DNA from: Promethearchaeia archaeon
GTDB lineage: Archaea; Asgardarchaeota; Lokiarchaeia; Sigyniarchaeales; SOKP01
Assembly: GCA_029856105.1 (NCBI GenBank)
Contig: JAHQWH010000015.1
Coordinates: 1-64,000, forward strand
Length of the DNA stretch: 64,000 bases
Direction: 5' to 3'
Below the pieces are notes generated by a model. That model made no database searches, had not been told where the DNA came from, and saw nothing but the letters and a program-made list of their open reading frames with translations. Of this stretch, positions 45,920-60,669 are shown one piece after another. The first letter of the stretch is position 1, and the number at the start of each line of letters is the position of its first letter. The position numbers and the translations under genes were made by a program.

Positions 45920-46324
45920 ATGAAAGGGTTAAAGAAAAGGCGGGAGTTTAAAACTTCGCTTGAAGACTTGTTAAAAGATATTATGGATAATATTGAAGGT
46001 GTGAAAGCAGCGCAACTAACTGCAGATACTGGTCAACCACTCGCCTCTATACTACCAACAAGTGCAGATGACATGCGATTAGCAGCCATGACTGCGGCAC
46101 ATTGTTCATTGAGTGAACGTGCTATTGGAGAAATGGGTCTTGGCGAATTTGAACAATCGTACATAAAAGGAAGTAAGGGATACATATTGATTTTACATGC
46201 CGGGGAAGATAAAGTTTTAAGTGTATCTACTACAAAAGACGTTAAACTCGCGCCAATCCTATACAAGCATTACAAACAACTAGAAGATGGCGACGAAATA
46301 GTAAGTAGTACGCCCCCTGTTTAA
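45920..46324 (+). CDS. Roadblock/LC7 (MglB-like) domain protein
   Basis: IEGVKAAQLTADTGQPLAS...RLAAMTAA...LGEFEQSYIKGSKGYILI pattern. Confidence 0.9.
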   Translation: MKGLKKRREFKTSLEDLLKDIMDNIEGVKAAQLTADTGQPLASILPTSADDMRLAAMTAAHCSLSERAIGEMGLGEFEQSYIKGSKGYILILHAGEDKVLSVSTTKDVKLAPILYKHYKQLEDGDEIVSSTPPV

Positions 46325-47161: not shown

Positions 47162-48604
47162 TTATAACTTTTTATCTTCGATATCGATACCTAGTTCTCT
47201 TAACCGTTCGCGTATTACATCGCTTAGGTCGTAGAGTTTTTTATCTCTTAACTTAGCGCGTATTTCGATTATTAAATTAACGAGACTTTTGATGAGTTTA
47301 TCTTTCTCATCCATGCTTTTAAACGAGAAAGGTGTCATTTTAGCGTTTAAAGATGGAAAAATTCCGAAAATCTTTTCATTAAATTCTATAAATTTGAAAA
47401 ATCGATCCTTAAATTCTTGGTTTATTTTCAAGCCATCTTGTAGTATAGCTTTGTTAATTTCTCTAAATAACGTCAATAACTCTGCCAAGGCTACAGGAGT
47501 GTCAAAATCGTCTTCCATAGCGTCAATAATTTTGTTTTCTGCATTTTCGATTTTTGCAATTAACTCGTTAAGTTGCTTTGATTTCGATTCAGCAAATTCA
47601 GCATCGTTCACTTTTTTAATCGTGTTTATTAATCGGTTATAAGTATTTTTAGCTTGCTCCATGCTTTCAATAGTATAATTATTTGAACTTCGATAATGAC
47701 TCGATATCAAATACCAACGAATAACCATTGGGTCATATTGCTTGGCAATATCTGCTACTGTGAAAATGTTTCCGAGACTTTTAGACATTTTTTCATCTTT
47801 TACATTAACATAACCGTTATGAAGGAAATAATTCGCAATTTTTTTACCAGTGTAAGACTCAGACTGCGCGATTTCGTTCCTGTGGTGTGGAAATTTCAAG
47901 TCTTGACCGCCCCCGTGTATGTCAATTGTTTCTCCTAAAAAGTTCAAGATCATAGCAGAACATTCAATGTGCCATCCAGGACGCCCCTCACCCCAGGGGC
48001 TTTCCCAAAAAGGCTCTCCTTCTTTCATCTTTTTCCACAACGCAAAATCTCGACTATCTAACTTATCTTCTCCAAATGCAGTATCTTGATCCACTACATA
48101 ATCTTCTTCTTCGCTTTCCTTTCCTTCATCTTTACTCTTTTGAAGAATAGAACTATATCCAGGAAACGATTTAACTGAGAAGTATACGGACCCATTTTTC
48201 TCGTAAGCGTGTCCCTTAGAAATTAATTCTTTAATAAAATTAATTATAAAATCTATTACTTCGGTTGCGCGTGGATTTCGCGTATCATGCTCGACATTGA
48301 GCATTTCCATGATTTCCTCATATTCAGCGATATAATGATCGCTTAAAGTCCTGAAATCGATGTTTCTCTCTTTAGAACTCTTAATTATTTTATCGTCAAT
48401 ATCAGTATAATTTTTTACTATATTAACTTTATAGCCCTTAAACTTTAAATACCTGTGAATTAAATCAAAAGCGACTGCGGACTTTGCGTGACCAAGGTGA
48501 GGCGAACCATATACTGTAACGCCACAAACATACATCTTGACTTTTCCGGGTTCGATTGGCTTAAATTCTTCCTTTTTAAACGTTAAGCTATTATAAACTT
48601 TCAT
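47162..48604 (-). CDS. cysS: Cysteine--tRNA ligase
   Basis: CGVTVY..HLGH, DFALWK, GRPGWHIECS, FPHHRNE and KMSKS motifs. Confidence 0.97.
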   Translation of the reverse strand: MKVYNSLTFKKEEFKPIEPGKVKMYVCGVTVYGSPHLGHAKSAVAFDLIHRYLKFKGYKVNIVKNYTDIDDKIIKSSKERNIDFRTLSDHYIAEYEEIMEMLNVEHDTRNPRATEVIDFIINFIKELISKGHAYEKNGSVYFSVKSFPGYSSILQKSKDEGKESEEEDYVVDQDTAFGEDKLDSRDFALWKKMKEGEPFWESPWGEGRPGWHIECSAMILNFLGETIDIHGGGQDLKFPHHRNEIAQSESYTGKKIANYFLHNGYVNVKDEKMSKSLGNIFTVADIAKQYDPMVIRWYLISSHYRSSNNYTIESMEQAKNTYNRLINTIKKVNDAEFAESKSKQLNELIAKIENAENKIIDAMEDDFDTPVALAELLTLFREINKAILQDGLKINQEFKDRFFKFIEFNEKIFGIFPSLNAKMTPFSFKSMDEKDKLIKSLVNLIIEIRAKLRDKKLYDLSDVIRERLRELGIDIEDKKL

Positions 48605-48657: not shown

Positions 48658-48766
48658 AGCCAGCGATGGGATTTGCACCCATGATGCTGAAAGCAACGGC
48701 TCTGCAGGCCGCCTCCTTACTACTCCCGCAACCAAGATAAATCTTGGTCATCTCGGATACGCTGGC
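48658..48766 (-). tRNA. tRNA-Cys(GCA) with a 29-nt intron at position 15/16 (48751-48723) and a long variable arm
   Basis: Acceptor GCCAGCG/CGCTGGC + U73; anticodon arm GCGGC-CTGCAGA-GCCGT; T arm ATGGG-TGCAAAT-CCCAT; relaxed bulge-helix-bulge around the D-loop insertion. Confidence 0.88.
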
Positions 48767-48932: not shown

Positions 48933-49460
48933 CTATTTAAAACATTTTCCACAACATTGACCATTTAAATTTGAATTTAAACTACAACTATCGAAATTAA
49001 AATCAAATGGCAAAACAAAATCATTCGTAACATCGGTTATTATGTCCACATAAACCGAAGAGACGTTAGAATTCTTTCTAAAGTGATTATTAACCATCTC
49101 ATCAATATTAGCTAGTTTAGTACCTATTACAAGAACACTGAGATTATAAGTGCCACTTAATCGAAATGCGTTTAGCATGTAAGGACAGTGTTTAACTAAT
49201 TCTATGGTTTTGTTTGGTTCTAAAGATTGAATTTCAACTCGTGCAAGGATTAAATCCATGGTTTTAACATTTATACCCGCTTGAAATTTTAAGACTCCCG
49301 CTTTTTCAAGCTTCCGAATCCTCATTCCGATCGTTGGTTGGCTCCGATCAACTCTTTTTGCGATTTCTGTATGAGTAAGCGTAGGCTCCTTTTGAATTAT
49401 TTCAATTATATTCTTATCAATCTCGTCTATTTTAAAGACTTGACTTTCCATTATCTCCAT
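48933..49460 (-). CDS. Lrp/AsnC-family transcriptional regulator with Cys-rich tail
   Basis: IDEIDKNII...HTH...RIRKLEKAGV; RAM-like domain; ends CS...CCGKCFK. Confidence 0.88.
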   Translation of the reverse strand: MEIMESQVFKIDEIDKNIIEIIQKEPTLTHTEIAKRVDRSQPTIGMRIRKLEKAGVLKFQAGINVKTMDLILARVEIQSLEPNKTIELVKHCPYMLNAFRLSGTYNLSVLVIGTKLANIDEMVNNHFRKNSNVSSVYVDIITDVTNDFVLPFDFNFDSCSLNSNLNGQCCGKCFK

Positions 49461-49625
49461 CTTAAATTTTTAATTTTTTACTTATATTCATTAATAACGA
49501 TATGCCGATATATAAATGTTACGATGGTTTATTAATAAAATATTAATTAATATTAATAAATCATTAAAAATATCTTTAAAAGCGATTAAAATCAATATAC
49601 CTAAAATACGATAGGATATTATTAA

Positions 49626-49961
49626 ATGAGTGAAAGTAAAATAGAGTTTATTGAGTTTTTAAGAGTTTTAGCAGATCAGACTCGATTAGATATACTAGAT
49701 TTATTGCGATATGAGAAAAAGACTTCTTCTGAAATTCAAACAGCCTTAGACAAGTCTCAATCTACAATTTCTCAACACTTAAAGGCTCTAAGTAACAAAA
49801 ATCTCATTATTTTTGATAAAAATAATAATGTTAAGTCCTATAAAATTAAGGATCCAAATATCTTTAAGCTCTTAGAAGAAATTAAATCTTTTGTTGTAAA
49901 AATTAATCAAGAAAAACTCAAAGACTTGAGAGATTTAGACGTAATAGATACGTTATCGTGA
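49626..49961 (+). CDS. ArsR/SmtB-family winged-HTH regulator
   Basis: LADQTRLDILDLL and SQSTISQHLKAL motifs. Confidence 0.9.
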   Translation: MSESKIEFIEFLRVLADQTRLDILDLLRYEKKTSSEIQTALDKSQSTISQHLKALSNKNLIIFDKNNNVKSYKIKDPNIFKLLEEIKSFVVKINQEKLKDLRDLDVIDTLS

Positions 49962-49988
49962 TTAATCGATTTTTAATCCCTTATTTAA

Positions 49989-50540
49989 ATGAATACAGCG
50001 ATGAGAGAAAACACAACAATTAACGCAAAAAAAGTATTAATCATGGGGTTAGATAATTCCGGTAAAACATCTATCGTATTATGTTTGAGGGGTGTGAAGA
50101 ATCTTTCGTCGTTTTCCTCGCTAAATCCTACGAGAGGGTTTAAGATCAATAAATTCCAAGCATTAGGCTCAGAATATAGCATCTGGGATTTCGGTGGGCA
50201 AGAACAATTTCGAGAGGGTTATTTAAACGACTTTCAAAACCACATAAAAAAAACTAATAAGTTCATTTATGTTTTGGACATCCAAGATCAGGAGCGGTTT
50301 AATAAATCGTTAGACTACTTAGATAAAATCGTTATCCTATTAAGGAAACATAAAGTAAATATTGATTTCTCTATATTTTTACATAAATACGATCCAGATT
50401 TGGAATTCACAAATAAAGAATTTATTGATAAACTGGTTTCTGATTTAATCAGAAATATAAAAGAATTAATTCCAAACGATTTTACGTATCAAATTTACAA
50501 AACATCGATTTATACTGTTTTTCAAAAATTTGGAATATAA
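49989..50540 (+). CDS. Small Ras-superfamily GTPase, Rag/Arf-like
   Basis: G1 GLDNSGKTS, G2 PT, G3 WDFGGQ, G4 HKYD, G5 TSIY. Confidence 0.92.
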   Translation: MNTAMRENTTINAKKVLIMGLDNSGKTSIVLCLRGVKNLSSFSSLNPTRGFKINKFQALGSEYSIWDFGGQEQFREGYLNDFQNHIKKTNKFIYVLDIQDQERFNKSLDYLDKIVILLRKHKVNIDFSIFLHKYDPDLEFTNKEFIDKLVSDLIRNIKELIPNDFTYQIYKTSIYTVFQKFGI

Positions 50541-50566
50541 AAAATAAGAAAAGGAATGGATATTTT

Positions 50567-52786
50567 TTGATTAGCAAAGTGAAAGATTCAGAAGCATCGA
50601 TAATTCGGGGTTTTTTAAACGATTATACAATATTAATAGTGATATTATTTCTTACCTATTTAACAAGTCTCTATAGTTACTTACTTTTTCATTCAATAAT
50701 TGAAATAATTAGTATTGTTATTTCAGGGGGGATTTTTATTGTTGGTTGGCACTCAAGAAAATACATGAATAGCTCCTTCTTTTTGGTAGTAGGTATTTCT
50801 TTTCTTTTCATAAGTATAATTGATTTACTTCACACCTTAGCCTACTCAGGAATGGGGATTTTTCTTGAATTCGACGCGAATCTTCCAACGCAATTGTGGA
50901 TTGTAGCCCGATATTGGCAAGCACTCTCCTATTTATTTGCTTCTATGGTCATAAAAAAAAAGATTAAAGCTAATTATTTATTCGTAAGCTATATCATTAT
51001 AATTCTTATTTTATTAACCACCATATTTCAAGGTTTCTTCCCTGTATGTTATATCAAAGGTTCGGGGCTCACTCCTTTTAAAATAATTAGTGAATACGCA
51101 ATTGATACAATTCTTTTTGTTACACTAATAGTATTATACAAGCATAAAGACGAGTTTGCTGAGAAAATATTTCTTTTAATTGTAATATCCATTATTGCCA
51201 CAATGATCTCAGAATTGGCGTTTACTTTCTATATTAGTGTATTTGGCTTCTCAAATTTTATTGGTCACATTTTTAAAATAATTGCCTTTTTCTTTGTCTA
51301 TAAGGCAATAATCGAATTGGGCATAGAAACTCCATTTGATTTATTATTTAGGAAGTTGAAGTTGAGCGAGGAATCTTCGATTGAAAAAGCGAACCAATTA
51401 GAACAAGCTTACTCTGAATTTAACCAAATGTTCAACGCATCTCTACCATTAAGGGTAATCAGTAATAACGGCGATATTTTGCGAGTTAATGAGACATACG
51501 CTTCTCTTTTCCACTTAACCAAAGAAGACCTTATAGGTAAAAAATGTTTTGACCTTCAATTAGGGTACGAACATCGATGTCATACAGAAATATGTTCAAG
51601 GAATCAAATTCTAGATGGAAAAGACTATTATGAATATGAATTAATCACAAAATTCGATGACGGTACTAAGATTGTTAGTCTTGTAAGATCAGTTCCTCAT
51701 AGAAGTGCAAATGGTGAAGTCATTGGACTGATACAAAATTTTACTAATATTACTGAGCGTAAATTTGCGCAAGAAAAAATTGAGGATATGGCAAGGTTTC
51801 CAATGGAAAATCCTAACCCCACATTAAGAGTAAGTAACAATTATATTCTTTTAGCAAATAAAGTGAGTCAATACTTATTCTTAGTCGGAGAAGGGAGTAA
51901 TATCCCTAAGTTTTTACAGGAACACATCCATAAAGCCTTTTCTGAGAACCTTAATTTAGAAATAGAGTTGAATATTAAAGATCAAATTTATTCTCTTTTC
52001 ATTGTACCAATGAAAGATAGAGGATATGCAAATATATACGGTATGAATATTACAGCTCGGAAAGAAGCTGAAAAAAGCTTGGAACGCTTTGTTTCAACGG
52101 TATCGCATGAATTAAGAACCCCAATTTCGGTTTTAATTATGTCGCTTGATTTTTTAGATAATCATTCTGAAAAAGTTACTCCAGGTATAGAAAAAAAATT
52201 GCAGGAAGGAATCAAAAGAAACATTTATCTTCTAAAAGAATTAGTTGACGATATTTTAACGTTATCAAGAATAGACGAGCGTAAATTAAAACTAAAGTGG
52301 GACGAGTATAATCCACTTAAGATTATGGGTGACATATTAACTTTAATGGAGCCTATTGGAAATGCGAAAAATATTACTTTTAGCGTAGATATAGATAAAA
52401 ACATTAAATTGTATGGGGATAAAACAAAAATTGACCAAATATTTCGTATTTTTATCGATAACTCCATAAAATATTCAAAGGAGAGTAACAAAATAGAGAT
52501 TAGAGCTATTAATCATTATAAAGGGAAATACAACATAGAGGAAAAAGATGGTGTTTTATTCCAGATTAAAGATTATGGAGTAGGAATTTTGGAAGAAGAT
52601 TTGCCATCTATTTTTCAAAGATTTTTTAGATCTGAACAAGTAAGCAATATTCCAGGTACGGGGTTAGGATTATCTATAGCAAAAGAACTATTAAAAATTC
52701 ATGGTGGCGAAGTATGGGTTCAAAGCGATTATGATAAAGGATCAACTTTTTCTATTTTTCTGCCGATAATTGAAAAAAGAATATAA
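50567..52786 (+). CDS. Membrane sensor histidine kinase (MASE3 + PAS + HisKA + HATPase)
   Basis: YLLFHSIIE, DLLHTLAYSGM and QLWIVAR (MASE3-type); SHELRTP; NSIKYS, DYGVGI and GTGLGL. Confidence 0.92.
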   Translation: MISKVKDSEASIIRGFLNDYTILIVILFLTYLTSLYSYLLFHSIIEIISIVISGGIFIVGWHSRKYMNSSFFLVVGISFLFISIIDLLHTLAYSGMGIFLEFDANLPTQLWIVARYWQALSYLFASMVIKKKIKANYLFVSYIIIILILLTTIFQGFFPVCYIKGSGLTPFKIISEYAIDTILFVTLIVLYKHKDEFAEKIFLLIVISIIATMISELAFTFYISVFGFSNFIGHIFKIIAFFFVYKAIIELGIETPFDLLFRKLKLSEESSIEKANQLEQAYSEFNQMFNASLPLRVISNNGDILRVNETYASLFHLTKEDLIGKKCFDLQLGYEHRCHTEICSRNQILDGKDYYEYELITKFDDGTKIVSLVRSVPHRSANGEVIGLIQNFTNITERKFAQEKIEDMARFPMENPNPTLRVSNNYILLANKVSQYLFLVGEGSNIPKFLQEHIHKAFSENLNLEIELNIKDQIYSLFIVPMKDRGYANIYGMNITARKEAEKSLERFVSTVSHELRTPISVLIMSLDFLDNHSEKVTPGIEKKLQEGIKRNIYLLKELVDDILTLSRIDERKLKLKWDEYNPLKIMGDILTLMEPIGNAKNITFSVDIDKNIKLYGDKTKIDQIFRIFIDNSIKYSKESNKIEIRAINHYKGKYNIEEKDGVLFQIKDYGVGILEEDLPSIFQRFFRSEQVSNIPGTGLGLSIAKELLKIHGGEVWVQSDYDKGSTFSIFLPIIEKRI

Positions 52787-52850
52787 ACTAACTTCTCCTT
52801 ATTCTATCCTAATAGACATTTAAAACAATACAAATTCAGTCAGATTTGAT

Positions 52851-53747
52851 TTGAAACCTCTAATTCTTATTGTTGAAGATAATGTTGATTTGTTGTACAA
52901 TATAAATTTAGTGTTAGAATCGAATAATTATAAACCGATTACTGCTAAAAACGGAAAAGTAGCTCTAAAAATTCTTTCGGAACTTGAACAGATTCCTGAT
53001 ATTATCATTAGCGATATAATAATGCCTGAAATGAATGGTTATGAGTTTTTTAGAGTGATATCCAAAGAACCTCGATGGAATCGAATTCCTTTCGTTTTTC
53101 TTTCTGCTCGCACTACTCCTAAAGATATTAGACTTGGAAAGTTGCTAGGAGTAGACGATTATTTAACAAAGCCATTTGACGAAAAAGACTTGTTAGCTAT
53201 AATATCTGGTAAAATTGCCCGTATTAATAGAGTAAATGCTTTAAACAACAAAATCGATGAAGTCTTTTCAACCATGGATATCGAAATGAAGATGTCGGCT
53301 ACTAGTGACCATGGAGAATTTATATGCTTATTACTAACCTTTTGGGACGATAAGTTTGGTCCCAATTTAAATTGCTATTACCCTGAAGAAAAAGATTTTT
53401 CCATATCCTTAGACGATATTTCAAATCAATTGTTTACGGTAGCAAATTCCATTTATGGTCAAAACAAAATAACTAAGGCTGAAGGTGTTTTATTAAACAT
53501 TGAAAATTTAAATAGTCGTGGATACCTTTTTTTTGATTCGTATCCTGATAAAGAAGAGAGATTTGGAGAAAAACAATATATGATTGCAATTATCGCTCCA
53601 TTAATAAACTATTTTCATACTTTAAAGATTAAAGATGTATTTACTGATTTATCAGATAAGATTAAAAATAAATTGAATTGGAACATCAAAGAATATTGGA
53701 AAAGAGTTTACGATATTTTGTTGATTGAAACAATACAAATAGAATAG
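52851..53747 (+). CDS. Response regulator: receiver domain + longin/uDENN-like output domain
   Basis: REC: VED, D55 (SDIIMP), FLSA, KPF. C-terminal FWDDKFGP..YYP and DKEERFGEKQYMI. Confidence 0.8.
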   Translation: MKPLILIVEDNVDLLYNINLVLESNNYKPITAKNGKVALKILSELEQIPDIIISDIIMPEMNGYEFFRVISKEPRWNRIPFVFLSARTTPKDIRLGKLLGVDDYLTKPFDEKDLLAIISGKIARINRVNALNNKIDEVFSTMDIEMKMSATSDHGEFICLLLTFWDDKFGPNLNCYYPEEKDFSISLDDISNQLFTVANSIYGQNKITKAEGVLLNIENLNSRGYLFFDSYPDKEERFGEKQYMIAIIAPLINYFHTLKIKDVFTDLSDKIKNKLNWNIKEYWKRVYDILLIETIQIE

Positions 53748-53792: not shown

Positions 53793-54731
53793 CTAAAAGC
53801 GATACAATTCTGTTGAGAGATATTTTTCTCCTCCGTCAGGTAAGAGTGCAACGATATTTTCTCCTTCTACGAAATCTTTTGAAGCTTCGAAAATTGCTGC
53901 CCATGCACAGGCTCCTGCTGAAATTCCAATGAATATGCCTTCCATTCTAGCTAATTTTCTAGCCGTCTCGATGGCATCTTTGTAGTCAACCTTTATAATT
54001 TTGTCGTAAATTTTAATATTTAACACTTCGGGGATAAAACCAGCACCTATACCTTGGATTTTATGAGGACCTGGTCTCTCACCTGATAAGATCGCAGAAT
54101 CCTTAGGTTCTACTGCGTAAACCTTCATTCTCGCCCCAACCCTATCTTTTAATACCTCACCGACTCCTGTTATTGTTCCACCAGTCCCTATTCCAGCAAC
54201 AAACCCATCCACTTGACCGGCTAAATCGTTAAATATCTCTATAGCTGTAGTTTTTCGGTGTATATCTGGGTTAGCTAGGTTTTTAAATTGTTGAGGGATG
54301 AATACTTTTCCTTTTTCTTTAGCTATTTCTTCCGCTTTTGAAATCGATCTTTTCATACCACCTTCTTTTGGGGTTAAAACTACCTCAGCACCAAAGGCTT
54401 TTAGAATTTGGACTCTCTCGATAGTTACGCTTTCGGGCATTACTAAAGTTATTTTATATCCTTTTGACGCACACACAAGCGCTAGACCAATGCCCGTATT
54501 TCCAGAAGTAGGCTCTACTATGGTTGTATCTTTATCAATAAGACCTTCCTCTTCGGCTTTAAGTATCATGTTCATTCCAATTCTATCTTTAACGCTACCC
54601 CCAGGGTTAAAAGACTCCAATTTTACAAATACATTGGGCTTAACGCTTCCAACGATTCTGTTTAATTTCACTAAGGGCGTTTTCCCAATTGCTTCAACTA
54701 TATTTTTATAATAATTTGCCATTAAATCCAC
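53793..54731 (-). CDS. cysK: Cysteine synthase (O-acetylserine sulfhydrylase)
   Basis: NPGGSVKDR, TSGNTG, GTGGT and HKIQGIG motifs. Confidence 0.96.
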   Translation of the reverse strand: MDLMANYYKNIVEAIGKTPLVKLNRIVGSVKPNVFVKLESFNPGGSVKDRIGMNMILKAEEEGLIDKDTTIVEPTSGNTGIGLALVCASKGYKITLVMPESVTIERVQILKAFGAEVVLTPKEGGMKRSISKAEEIAKEKGKVFIPQQFKNLANPDIHRKTTAIEIFNDLAGQVDGFVAGIGTGGTITGVGEVLKDRVGARMKVYAVEPKDSAILSGERPGPHKIQGIGAGFIPEVLNIKIYDKIIKVDYKDAIETARKLARMEGIFIGISAGACAWAAIFEASKDFVEGENIVALLPDGGEKYLSTELYRF

Positions 54732-54765: not shown

Positions 54766-55611
54766 TTATATTCCACTACCATTTTCTCCGTAAAATATTT
54801 CGATATCGTCTTCTGTTGGTTTCGAACTATGAGGAAAATGTTTCTCCAATTCTTTGATTCTTTTATTTAAACTCGAGAAAGCGATTGAAATTGGGTCGGG
54901 AAGTTCACCGTGGCGCAAATCAATTTTTTCGATTTTTTCTCCTTTTTTCGATACAATTTTCGCAGGAACCCCTACGACTACGCAATTTGAAGGCACATCG
55001 CTAACAACCACGGAATTTGCGCCAACTCTCACGTTTTCTCCAAGAGTAATAGGTCCTAAAATCTTTGCGCCAGTACCAACAACAACATTATCACCTAAAG
55101 TGGGGTGCCTTTTTTTTTGTTCCAAATTAGTACCCCCTAAAACTACGCCTGCGTAAATCGTTACATTGTTTCCAATCTCAGTTGTTTCCCCTATAACTAC
55201 TCCGGCTCCGTGGTCTATAAAGAATTCGCTACCAATCTCTGCTCCTGGATGAATTTCTACAGCAGTCAGATCTCGTGCGATACCAGAGATATATCTAGGT
55301 ATGTATGGTAATCCTAATTTCCAAAAGAAATGCGCAATGCGATATAGTAATACGGCTTTAATCCCAGGATAACTTGTTAAAACTTCAATTAAGGTGCGTG
55401 CAGCGGGATCTTTATTAAACGCAGCATTCACATCCGAAACAAAGAAATTTAAGATACCTTGAAGATACTTGTTAATTTCTCTGTAATCTAAATCCTCCGT
55501 TTTAAATTCTAATTTTAGCAAACAATCTGTGCATTGGTTCCTTCCACTTATTGGTTTAAAACCTAACTTTTTACCACAAGATAAACATCTAAGAAAATCA
55601 TCCGTTTCCAT
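54766..55611 (-). CDS. cysE: Serine O-acetyltransferase with N-terminal zinc-ribbon extension
   Basis: DPAA, EIHPGA, FIDHG, RHPT and VGVPA motifs; N-terminal CLSC...CTDC. Confidence 0.94.
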   Translation of the reverse strand: METDDFLRCLSCGKKLGFKPISGRNQCTDCLLKLEFKTEDLDYREINKYLQGILNFFVSDVNAAFNKDPAARTLIEVLTSYPGIKAVLLYRIAHFFWKLGLPYIPRYISGIARDLTAVEIHPGAEIGSEFFIDHGAGVVIGETTEIGNNVTIYAGVVLGGTNLEQKKRHPTLGDNVVVGTGAKILGPITLGENVRVGANSVVVSDVPSNCVVVGVPAKIVSKKGEKIEKIDLRHGELPDPISIAFSSLNKRIKELEKHFPHSSKPTEDDIEIFYGENGSGI

Positions 55612-57804: not shown

Positions 57805-60669
57805 ATGATTTCCGACGATAACAAGCGCGAAAATGTTAAGACTCAATTTCAAATAATTATGGAAATTGTTAACGATTTGGTGATGATTATTGATCAAACG
57901 GAAGATTTCAAAATTGAGTTAATTAACGATTGCCCGTTATTGGAAAATTTAGGATACGCTGAAAGTGATTTGGTCGGGAATTCGTTTCTAAATATACTAT
58001 TTTCGGAAGATAAAAAAAAAGCAATAAGATTTTTAAAAAAGGGGATCGATACTTTTGATAATTTTCAAGAAGTAAAGTTATTTTCAGCGAAAGATGAAAT
58101 AATTTGGGTGGAAATAAAAGCAAGAAAATTTACGGACGAGGATAAAAACGAGAAAATATTAATTATTGTGAAAGATATCTCAAAACAAAAAAGAATCGAA
58201 GGAAATTTAAGAGAAACTGAAGATAGATTTAAAAAAATAACAGATACTATCCCAGAAATACGCTTTTGGAAATTATTTAATCCTAAAAAATATGAGGAGG
58301 CTTTGCAGAGCAGTTATGAAATGCTACAGATGGTAATAGAAAATATCCCACAATATATTATATGGAAGGATATTGATCAGAGTTATCTCGGATGTAACGA
58401 TAATTACGCAAAATTAATTGAGATTGAACACCCTGAAAATATTATAGGAAAAACTGACGAAGAATTGCTTTTAGATAAGAACCAAATACAATTTAACAAA
58501 GAACAAGAAAGGAAAGTTATCGAATCTAATAAAGTTGTTTTTCATACTAATGAATCATGGATCCTCAGAAACGGAGAAAAGATTTGGATTGATGTAAATA
58601 GAATTCCTTTGTTAAACTCTGATGGAAATGTTGCAGGACTTTTAATTACTTTTGAAGATATTACCGAACGGAAGAACGCTGAGGAGAATTTGCGTAAACA
58701 ACATGAGAGATTAGAACGAATTATGGAAACCAATCCCGCAGGAATCTTATCTGTTGATACTATCGGTCATATTATATATGTCAATTCTCAAGCTGAAAAA
58801 GTCTTACATTATCCTAAAGAAGAATTGTTAAAAAAAACATTTTTAACCACTAAATTTAAATTTTTAAACTCAGAAGGCAAACTTATTCCTAAGAATGAGC
58901 TACCTTTTCAGATTATTACGAAAACGAAAAAACCACTATTTGATTATCATGCGACTTTTAAGTCATTTACGAATGAAAATATTCTACTTTCTATCAATGG
59001 TACGCCTTTATTAAAGAATAACGGAGAAATCGAGAATATAATTTTTACAGTAGAGGATATTACTGAAAAAGAATTAGCTGAAAAAAAAATTAAAGATTCA
59101 GAAGAAAAATATAAGGACTTATTAGAGACATCAACAATTGGTATTTTAGAAATAGAGTTGGAAAATAATAGCGTTTCTTACATTAATCCAAAATTATTAG
59201 AATTTATTGGGTATCAAGATGTTGACTATGTCAACAAAAAATTGATGGATGAAATAATTCATCCAGACGATCTGCTAAAGTTGTTAAATTCAGAAGAAGG
59301 AAAGGATATCGAATTTAGAATTGTGACTAATAAAGGAAAAATAAAATGGTTACAAGGAAAAAGATTAAATCAATACGACGATAGAGATAATCTAATTAGT
59401 TTTAGATTATGGTTAGAAGACGTCACTGAAAAAAAAATGTACGAAGAATTGATTTATGAGTTAAATATTAATTTTTTAAACTACACAACGGACATTCAAC
59501 AAAATATCGAATTATTGTTAAAAACTTGCTTAAAATTACTTAATGGTGACATTGTACTATACATCACTAAAAGCGATCATGAAGAAGAAGAGCAATATCG
59601 GGTAATGAGTAGTAAAGGGGACATCACAATGTATCCTTCGGGAGCGTTTACGAAAGATTTGTTTGTAAGCGAATTATTTATAGAAAATCACGACTTTACT
59701 CAGGAATTCTTTGACATTCATAAAACGAAGTATGCCAAGTCTGATCGTTATATAATTGAAAACGGTATCGAAGCTTGTTATGGTAAATTAATCCTATCTG
59801 GAAACGACTTAAATAGTTTACTCTGCGTTTTGTTTAAACAAAATCCAACTATTACCAACCAAAATAAATTGGTGCTATTTTTAATATGCGATGCTCTCGA
59901 AATAGAGCAAAGAAGGTGGGAATCTCAACAACATTTGGAAGAACAAAACCGAATGTTAAGCGAAATAAATAAATTAAAAAGCGATTTGTTTTCAAGAACT
60001 TCGCACGAATTAAAAACGCCATTAATTTCTATTAAAGGATTCACCGAGTTATTGTTAAAACTACACTCAAATAAGTTGGACAGCGATGTTATTTCGATTT
60101 TAGAGGAGATTAAGAGCGGTAGTAAGCGCCTTGAAGATTACATTAACTCACTTGTCGAAAGCTCTCAATTAGATCAAGGGTTGTTGAAAATAAAAAAAAA
60201 GAGAGAGAATCTTACATTTTTAATTAAATATTGCATTAAGCAATTATCTGGTACGGCCAAATTAAGAGAACAGAAGGTTAAACTAAATATTAAGAATAAT
60301 ATATATGCAAATTTTGATAAAGAGAAAATTTACGAAGTTATCACCAATTTGTTGATTAATGCAATAAAGTATACTCCTATTGGGGGTACAATTACAATTG
60401 ATTCTCATCAAAAAAACCATTATTATATAATTTCGATAAATGACACCGGCATTGGACTAACTAAAAAAGAAATAGCGCAACTTTTTACGCAGTTTGGTAA
60501 AATTGAAAGATACGGCCAGGGATGGGACGTAGGCATCGAAGGGACAGGATTAGGATTGTACATTTCGAAAGAATTAATTGACCTTCACGACGGGAATATA
60601 TGGGTCGAATCAGAAGGCCGGAACAAAGGAAGTACTTTTTTCTTTTCTATACCAATAGAAAAAAAATAA
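57805..60669 (+). CDS. Cytoplasmic multi-PAS histidine kinase
   Basis: About four PAS/PAC units (DITERK-type ends), a GAF-like segment, SHELKTP, NAIKYT and GTGLGL. Confidence 0.92.
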   Translation: MISDDNKRENVKTQFQIIMEIVNDLVMIIDQTEDFKIELINDCPLLENLGYAESDLVGNSFLNILFSEDKKKAIRFLKKGIDTFDNFQEVKLFSAKDEIIWVEIKARKFTDEDKNEKILIIVKDISKQKRIEGNLRETEDRFKKITDTIPEIRFWKLFNPKKYEEALQSSYEMLQMVIENIPQYIIWKDIDQSYLGCNDNYAKLIEIEHPENIIGKTDEELLLDKNQIQFNKEQERKVIESNKVVFHTNESWILRNGEKIWIDVNRIPLLNSDGNVAGLLITFEDITERKNAEENLRKQHERLERIMETNPAGILSVDTIGHIIYVNSQAEKVLHYPKEELLKKTFLTTKFKFLNSEGKLIPKNELPFQIITKTKKPLFDYHATFKSFTNENILLSINGTPLLKNNGEIENIIFTVEDITEKELAEKKIKDSEEKYKDLLETSTIGILEIELENNSVSYINPKLLEFIGYQDVDYVNKKLMDEIIHPDDLLKLLNSEEGKDIEFRIVTNKGKIKWLQGKRLNQYDDRDNLISFRLWLEDVTEKKMYEELIYELNINFLNYTTDIQQNIELLLKTCLKLLNGDIVLYITKSDHEEEEQYRVMSSKGDITMYPSGAFTKDLFVSELFIENHDFTQEFFDIHKTKYAKSDRYIIENGIEACYGKLILSGNDLNSLLCVLFKQNPTITNQNKLVLFLICDALEIEQRRWESQQHLEEQNRMLSEINKLKSDLFSRTSHELKTPLISIKGFTELLLKLHSNKLDSDVISILEEIKSGSKRLEDYINSLVESSQLDQGLLKIKKKRENLTFLIKYCIKQLSGTAKLREQKVKLNIKNNIYANFDKEKIYEVITNLLINAIKYTPIGGTITIDSHQKNHYYIISINDTGIGLTKKEIAQLFTQFGKIERYGQGWDVGIEGTGLGLYISKELIDLHDGNIWVESEGRNKGSTFFFSIPIEKK

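Follow-up and report, generated by a model that had tools for sequence, protein, structure and literature searches.

How a sensor kinase of bacterial type comes to be encoded beside a Rag-like GTPase in an Asgard archaeon, and whether the one controls the other, is the question raised by four genes of a Promethearchaeia archaeon (assembly GCA_029856105.1, contig JAHQWH010000015.1). The window, meaning the whole stretch of DNA analysed, comprises the first 64,000 nucleotides of this contig; relatives close to its sequences carry the label Promethearchaeota. The genes form a cassette of four plus-strand open reading frames (ORFs) for an ArsR-family protein, a small GTPase, a histidine kinase, and a response regulator, separated by gaps of 27, 26, and 64 bp; this layout, described in a first-pass annotation, is borne out by ORF coordinates and Pfam matches. 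The same annotation proposed that the regulator carries a longin domain resembling GTPase-activating proteins (GAPs) through which the kinase controls the GTPase. The cassette is real, conserved, and mechanistically coherent in its parts, motifs, folds, and linkage, and the reading of its regulator as a GAP is supported. Its features, all on the plus strand, are as follows.

49626..49961, plus strand: ArsR-family winged-helix regulator, 111 aa (Pfam ArsR HTH_5)
49989..50540, plus strand: Rag-type GTPase, 183 aa (Pfam Gtr1_RagA, 79 bits; Arf, 74.5 bits)
50199-50201, plus strand: codon of the GTPase catalytic Gln71 (invariant in 79 relatives)
50567..52786, plus strand: membrane sensor histidine kinase, 739 aa, TTG start (Pfam MASE3, PAS, HisKA, and HATPase_c)
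52106-52108, plus strand: codon of the kinase phospho-acceptor His514 (residue check)
52851..53747, plus strand: receiver-longin regulator, 298 aa, TTG start (Pfam Response_reg, residues 5-118 only)
52863..53204, plus strand: receiver domain of the regulator (Pfam Response_reg, 78.6 bits)
53013-53015, plus strand: codon of the receiver phospho-acceptor Asp55 (residue check)
53325..53741, plus strand: GAP-type (FLCN/C9orf72/SMCR8/NPRL2-like) longin output domain (predicted structure, Foldseek, VIA, profile)
53343..53363, plus strand: W165-D166 and G170-P171 (profile-aligned to C9orf72 W33-D34 and G38-P39)
53559..53561, plus strand: Arg237, candidate arginine finger in the beta4-beta5 loop (conservation and model)

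The output domain of the regulator

The regulator continues for about 160 residues past its receiver without a Pfam match. Pfam searches with this output domain gave no family, only faint Folliculin matches in one or two members, and ESM Atlas returned unnamed clusters with scores under 0.8. The predicted structure (predicted local distance difference test, pLDDT, 82.9) has the order beta-beta-alpha-beta-beta-beta-alpha-alpha, which is that of longins. Its best VIA matches are Lst4 (Z 12.5; root-mean-square deviation, rmsd, 2.9; 123 residues aligned), the Asgard longin dimer 8YQG (Z 12.3; 3.3; 134), the FLCN complex (Z 11.7; 2.8; 133), C9orf72 (Z 11.5; 3.2; 134), and the SMCR8 complex (Z 10.8; 2.7; 121); the GAP longins outrank the longins of TRAPP, SNARE, and adaptin proteins. 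Foldseek matches GATOR1 and FLCN-FNIP entries at E values of 1e-4 to 7e-4. When a profile built from 74 relatives is searched against the PDB, C9orf72 is the sole match, at borderline E values of 0.037 and 0.17; FLCN and SMCR8 are not reached. The GAP-like longin of the first-pass annotation thus holds on the predicted structure, and the motif positions expected of such a domain are conserved.

Within the 74 relatives, W165 and G170 are invariant (74/74 each), and D166 (69/74), P171 (72/74), and Arg237 (69/74) nearly so; in a wider set Arg237 is kept in 101 of 107 sequences and absent from the other 6. In the model Arg237 falls in the loop joining strands 4 and 5, the loop that SMCR8 Arg147 and FLCN Arg164 occupy. 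The signature of GAP longins, a Gly-Pro (GP) motif and an arginine finger, is absent from non-GAP longins (PMC12290439). The Trp-Asp (WD) motif of C9orf72 is required for activity. Of the features that define longin GAPs, the regulator has a uDENN-class longin fold, the GP motif before beta2, the WD motif, and the beta4-beta5 loop arginine; it lacks a C-terminal DENN or NPRL domain and a second, different longin subunit.

A single chain carries the near-invariant Arg237 together with the GP motif and a WD motif of the C9orf72 type; it stops at the end of the longin and is encoded in single copy in the window genome and in one copy at most loci. Since the pocket of eukaryotic longin GAPs requires two longins and this chain has both halves of it, a homodimer is the simple reading, and the solved Asgard longin homodimer (8YQG) is in keeping with it.

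At four of the six loci with two regulator copies, one copy is arginine-less and retains the tryptophan and glycine (L077, L087, L118, and L122), versus 2 of 95 single copies; both copies keep the arginine at L200 and L209, which belong to another class. This copy-specific loss resembles, by analogy, the division of labour between SMCR8 and C9orf72.

The sensor kinase and the receiver

The proteins on either side of the putative phosphotransfer have the hallmarks of a two-component system. The kinase has seven predicted membrane helices, and His514 and the N, G1, and G2 boxes are intact. The receiver site is complete (E9-D10, D55, S85, Y104, and K107-P108), as the first-pass annotation had stated for D55, and an aspartate occupies the acceptor position in 94 of 107 relatives, with 9 more not read by the pattern used. 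The adjacency of the two genes, together with hybrid kinase-receiver fusions elsewhere in the family, suggests that the kinase phosphorylates Asp55. In one genome (L062/L188) the MASE3 kinase is split between two ORFs; the cassette there is 70-80% identical to that of the window.

The GTPase

The GTPase contains the motifs GLDNSGKT, PT, WDFGGQ, HKYD, and TSIY. In 79 relatives G20, G25, K26, P47, T48, G70, Q71, H132, K133, and D135 are invariant, which confirms the Rag-like motifs and the switch-II glutamine that had been read from the sequence. Its nearest structure is LokiRagO (8YL2; 36% identity, TM-score 0.80; VIA Z 22.2, rmsd 2.4, 168 residues aligned), followed in the structural ranking by Gtr1 and RagA and then by Arf/Arl proteins, although Pfam scores are nearly equal for Gtr1_RagA and Arf and the G1 motif is Arf-like. 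By motifs and the model, membership of the Arf/ArfR family is contradicted by the lack of Gly2, by the disorder of residues 1-9 where Arf proteins have an amphipathic helix, and by a G4 motif that is HKxD in 79/79 relatives. The sequence has no lipid-anchor motif, neither Gly2 nor CaaX.

The first-pass annotation overlooked what the GTPase is missing. The G domain has HKxD, TSI, and the switch-II glutamine of Rag/Gtr proteins, and it lacks helix alpha5 and the C-terminal roadblock domain: 74 of the 79 relatives stop 8-11 residues past G5, the family spans 173-198 aa, and the predicted structure has a coil after beta6 in place of alpha5, with residues 1-9 disordered. Overlays of Arf proteins on the model end ahead of the last Arf helix. 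A free roadblock gene (45920-46324), 3.7 kb upstream of the cassette, was considered as the missing C-terminal domain and rejected as a core part; among the loci viewed, the genus of the window is the only one in which this gene is close to the cassette.

Small GTPases that bear the catalytic glutamine need an arginine in trans. With Gln71 and the nucleotide motifs unchanged, or almost so, across the 79 relatives, the cassette GTPase would be an active-type switch wanting such an arginine. The window genome encodes at least 16 other related GTPases.

A second truncated Rag-like family retains only the first turns of alpha5 (L148, L149, L151, L158-L160, L172, L175, and L178); each of its genes lies directly downstream of a receiver-longin gene. 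At two further places in the window genome (C38, L171; C102, L169), a Rag-like GTPase gene occurs among genes for kinases and stand-alone receivers.

Linkage of the regulator and the GTPase

The first-pass annotation named synteny across Lokiarchaeia as a check, and here the result is strong. In 82 of 99 genomes, from eight genera of one family, no more than 6 kb separates the best short-GTPase match from a receiver-longin gene (a count taken from match tables, with four positions read off fetched loci); for a 3.7 Mb genome the chance of such linkage is below 1%, but the genomes are kin. Of 161 genomes in the class, 132 encode the longin output domain; for the phylum the figure is 149 of 400, and beyond the class the domain comes mainly from a single family. 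The full cassette occurs in another family too (L215).

The link persists through rearrangement. In the canonical arrangement the genes run ArsR, GTPase, kinase, regulator, and several other orders occur: the GTPase and regulator are direct neighbours, the kinase having been lost or relocated (L071, L086, L115, L116, L118, L119, L121, and L122), the halves are inverted or convergent with the link kept (L075, L092-L094, L096, and L099), or the whole cassette is duplicated (L071, L106, and L113). Receiver-longin genes adjoin three separate Rag-like clades. A second, paralogous clade of regulators (99% support, 17 rows) is mostly paired with a truncated GTPase clade of its own (100% support, 9 rows), in genomes where the main cassette is present as well. 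In a different class, the regulator adjoins longin-GTPase fusion proteins. The longin is itself fused to PAS domains (L140 and L142) and occurs in kinase-receiver hybrids (P0148 and P0163).

A model of two longins with the GTPase, GTP, and Mg, the kind of complex the first-pass annotation had suggested modelling, scores 0.59 (runs 0.78, 0.00, and 0.59), and the best of three controls scores 0.00. Contact agreement among the runs is at least 0%, with a partner pLDDT of at least 73. The score mark is reached by 58 of 80 solved complexes and by 2 of 110 mismatched pairs, but among those that reach it, just 7 of the 80 solved complexes and both mismatches stand at 0.60 or below. The model therefore offers weak support for binding, and it may echo solved longin-GAP complexes.

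Other arrangements of these domains were seen. One 416-aa protein (L147:7890-9140) joins a Ras-like GTPase to the same GAP-type longin. Genes for kinases, receivers, and longins are densely clustered with those of several GTPases, both Rag-like and Ras-like, at L141, L145, L201, L204, and L209. Paired proteins of 670-690 aa with an N-terminal longin (a weak match to the regulator longin family) and TPR repeats lie beside GTPase genes at L117:238-4894 and L146:2318-4399 and may form heterodimeric longin complexes.

ArsR and the sulfur context

Among 80 sampled short GTPases, 53 have ArsR as the gene immediately upstream; 14 of the 27 without it have a plain longin directly downstream, and one GTPase only has both. 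Across 38 relatives the ArsR protein has no conserved cysteine and no alpha5 histidine site, so that it shares only the fold family, and not the Cys/His sites, of metal-sensing ArsR/SmtB proteins. It has a conserved extra C-terminal helix with the ending D-x-phi-phi-D-T-L, and the plain longins beside short GTPases likewise end in an extra amphipathic helix; the two could be alternative partners of the GTPase, perhaps binding in its empty alpha5 groove. Homology of these plain longins to the regulator longin was looked for and not detected (profile-comparison probability 0.7%).

In the window the cassette is enclosed by cysS, cysK, and cysE (47162-48604, 53793-54731, and 54766-55611); in other genera, genes for thioredoxin reductase, disulfide oxidoreductase, or peroxiredoxin, or SufBC-like genes, take their place. 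A search of 48658-48766 for a tRNA-Cys gene with ARAGORN and Rfam gave no match, though a gene with a non-canonical intron could escape both. Sulfur genes, a set picked post hoc (cysS/cysK/cysE, thioredoxin reductase with protein disulfide oxidoreductase, or SufBC-like), are found at 32 of the 51 loci where GTPase and regulator occur together, versus 0 of 17 with the GTPase only and 1 of 49 with the regulator only. This association, which may go back to a single ancestral island, is a lead only.

A possible mechanism and its alternatives

In the proposed mechanism, the membrane MASE3-PAS sensor kinase would place a phosphate on Asp55 of the co-encoded receiver-longin protein, and the phosphorylation state would set the assembly or opening of a longin-longin homodimer. 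Within the homodimer one protomer would grip the GTPase through its WD/GP face while the other puts Arg237 into the active site, merging jobs that are split in eukaryotes between C9orf72 and SMCR8, or FNIP and FLCN. The substrate would be the co-encoded alpha5-less Rag-like G domain, which has a catalytic glutamine and no arginine of its own. The GTP/GDP state of the GTPase would then most likely act on the adjacent ArsR, giving a chain from kinase to receiver-longin GAP to GTPase to transcription, plausibly of genes for cysteine, thiol, or Fe-S supply.

A phospho-gated GAP for this GTPase is argued for by the linkage kept through rearrangement, the pairing of clades, the fusions, the combination of GP, WD, and arginine, and the copy-specific arginine loss. 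Phosphotransfer, homodimer, GAP activity, and the co-encoded GTPase as substrate are, taken jointly, on balance probable. A GAP role of the longin is favoured over that of a guanine nucleotide exchange factor (GEF), and phosphorylation may switch the GAP on or off. That ArsR is the effector of the GTPase is a serious possibility that falls somewhat short of probable, and a role in sulfur supply is doubtful. The most elaborate version, in which a kinase-gated homodimeric longin GAP is the ancestral state, the C-terminal helix of ArsR fills the alpha5 groove, and the GTPase directly controls cysteine/thiol transcription, is unlikely as a whole.

Several points weigh against this interpretation. 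The longin is only 6-16% identical to eukaryotic GAP-longin chains, and Arg237 is equated with FLCN Arg164 and SMCR8 Arg147 by loop position, not by residue-level alignment. Every longin GAP known so far is a heterodimer. The arginine-less copies are long branches that may be decaying duplicates or share one origin, and the regulator and GTPase trees (quick or FastTree) do not settle the independence of the four losses. Receiver-longin genes also stand beside Ras/Rab-like GTPases (L139, L141, and L154) or have no GTPase neighbour (for example L143, L144, L150, and L152). A close link is missing in 17 of the 99 genomes, several of these being contig breaks or holding a second linked copy, and 29 of 80 sampled short GTPases have no nearby receiver-longin gene. 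The genomes are related, which makes the counts non-independent, and the sampled loci were hand-chosen. ArsR-GTPase fusions were not found, either among longer proteins (a weak search) or among ten paralogues of the window genome.

The longin might instead be a structural or input partner, which replaces the lost C-terminal domain in trans or acts as an effector or GEF, with the signal running from the GTPase to the receiver or kinase. Neither alpha5 nor the roadblock domain is present in the GTPase family, full-length Asgard Rag-like proteins bear a fused roadblock or longin domain, in overlays the tail of the GTPase takes the position of a strand from the Rag C-terminal domain, and longins more often serve as GEFs or platforms (PMC10933270). 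A scaffold nevertheless leaves the near-invariant loop arginine and the GP and WD motifs unexplained; the plain longins beside short GTPases are of a different family without these motifs, and the regulator also adjoins full-length longin-GTPases that need no complement (L199, L208, and L209). This alternative is judged improbable.

The target of a phospho-gated GAP is a separate issue: the regulator could be promiscuous or serve other GTPases, with GTPase-ArsR forming a separate, merely co-regulated module. Other candidates are at hand in the at least 16 further related GTPases of the genome and in the Ras/Rab-like genes that the regulator adjoins, and to one of which it is fused; 12 of 53 ArsR-GTPase pairs lack a regulator, and human C9orf72-SMCR8 works on Arf and Rab proteins alike. 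Such a separation is hard to square with a link that outlasts rearrangement and kinase loss, with cassettes duplicated whole, and with regulator clades that match GTPase clades, and it is given a slim chance. Slighter still is the prospect that no functional link exists and that in some ancestor a two-component pair came to lie next to an ArsR-GTPase pair, the order being inherited since. Linked genomes do come mostly from one family, and in other families the genes are often separate (0/3 by best match); within the linked set, however, flanking genes differ between genera while the link stays, and several orders keep the pair. The association also recurs in three GTPase clades and a second class, and the longin bears the motifs of a GTPase regulator.

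Flanking genes and a candidate promoter element

Two further features lie upstream of the cassette.

48933..49460, minus strand: Lrp/AsnC regulator, divergent from the cassette (Pfam HTH_24, HTH_AsnC-type, and AsnC ligand domain)
49575..49581, plus strand: candidate archaeal TATA box TTTAAAA, about 45 bp upstream of arsR (consensus match only)

The divergent Lrp gene is present at 37 of 53 ArsR-GTPase loci, which makes it a conserved companion of the cassette and possibly a member of the pathway. In two genera, many loci have TTTAAAA at a comparable spacing, in a region that is AT-rich, hence its listing as a consensus match. Promoter and terminator scans of the cassette with bacterial models gave matches at chance level. 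A second histidine kinase (57805-60669), multi-PAS and cytoplasmic, lies 4 kb downstream and is kept near the cassette within the genus; it may be a second input.

Significance

The cassette bears on a gap left in two papers, one in which Asgard GTPases could not be matched to regulators by gene order (PMC10933270) and one that leaves the partner of GAP-like longins open (PMC12290439). It offers a candidate regulator, substrate, catalytic residue, and input, and all of its proteins are small and soluble save for the kinase sensor. If the proposed mechanism is correct, the regulator would provide the first demonstration of a longin GAP beyond the eukaryotes, a phosphorelay would be coupled directly to a Rag-type switch, and the homodimer would be a model for the ancestor of FLCN, GATOR1, and C9orf72-SMCR8 before catalytic and holding roles were split. 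Members of the family come mainly from Lokiarchaeia and one further Asgard family, so it need not mirror the direct ancestor of eukaryotes.

Comparison with known systems

The first-pass annotation presented the cassette as a candidate new signalling system. No paper on the cassette, or on 8YL2/LokiRag, was found in a literature search that covered subscription journals thinly. The system is nevertheless less new than that annotation held: the domain fusion, longins with GP and arginine, and phosphorelay control of a small GTPase had already been published. Many Asgard NPRL2-like longins fused to two-component domains have been reported, and two-component systems of prokaryotic type are described as staying central, with some regulators eukaryote-like (Liu et al., bioRxiv 10.1101/2020.10.19.343400; Nature 2021). 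These fusions, in the parts of that work consulted, are of the same domain-fusion class as the receiver-longin regulator, and the same parts describe no conserved GTPase operon, substrate, catalytic residues, or ArsR link. Asgard longins bearing GP and the arginine have also been reported, with the partner GTPase left as a question and, unlike the cassette regulator, without mention of response regulators or two-component systems (PMC12290439, Traffic 2025).

For the GTPase, the closest solved G domains are those of LokiRagO (8YL2), LokiRagM (8ZLA/9M28), and the MK-D1 Rag-like proteins (PMC10933270). LokiRagO and LokiRagM have alpha5 and a C-terminal domain and are 342 and 385 aa long, in contrast to the short cassette family. 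MK-D1 GTPases are rarely in operons with their own regulators (Tran et al., PMC10933270), a pattern to which the cassette is an exception.

The eukaryotic longin GAPs C9orf72-SMCR8 (for Arf), FLCN-FNIP and Lst7-Lst4 (for RagC/D), and GATOR1 NPRL2-NPRL3 (for RagA/B) have in common with the cassette the longin fold, GP, WD, the beta4-beta5 arginine, and a Rag/Arf-type GTPase with a catalytic glutamine. The cassette differs from them in having holding and catalytic motifs on one chain, no DENN domain, a phospho-receiver as input, and a lone truncated G domain as substrate; no context of lysosome, Ragulator, or TOR was seen for it. In Myxococcus, the Frz, RomR-RomX, and MglA-MglB proteins likewise put a small GTPase and a roadblock-family GAP under the control of a phosphorelay and response regulators; there, receiver and GAP are on separate proteins, the GTPase is of MglA type, and the output is cell polarity.

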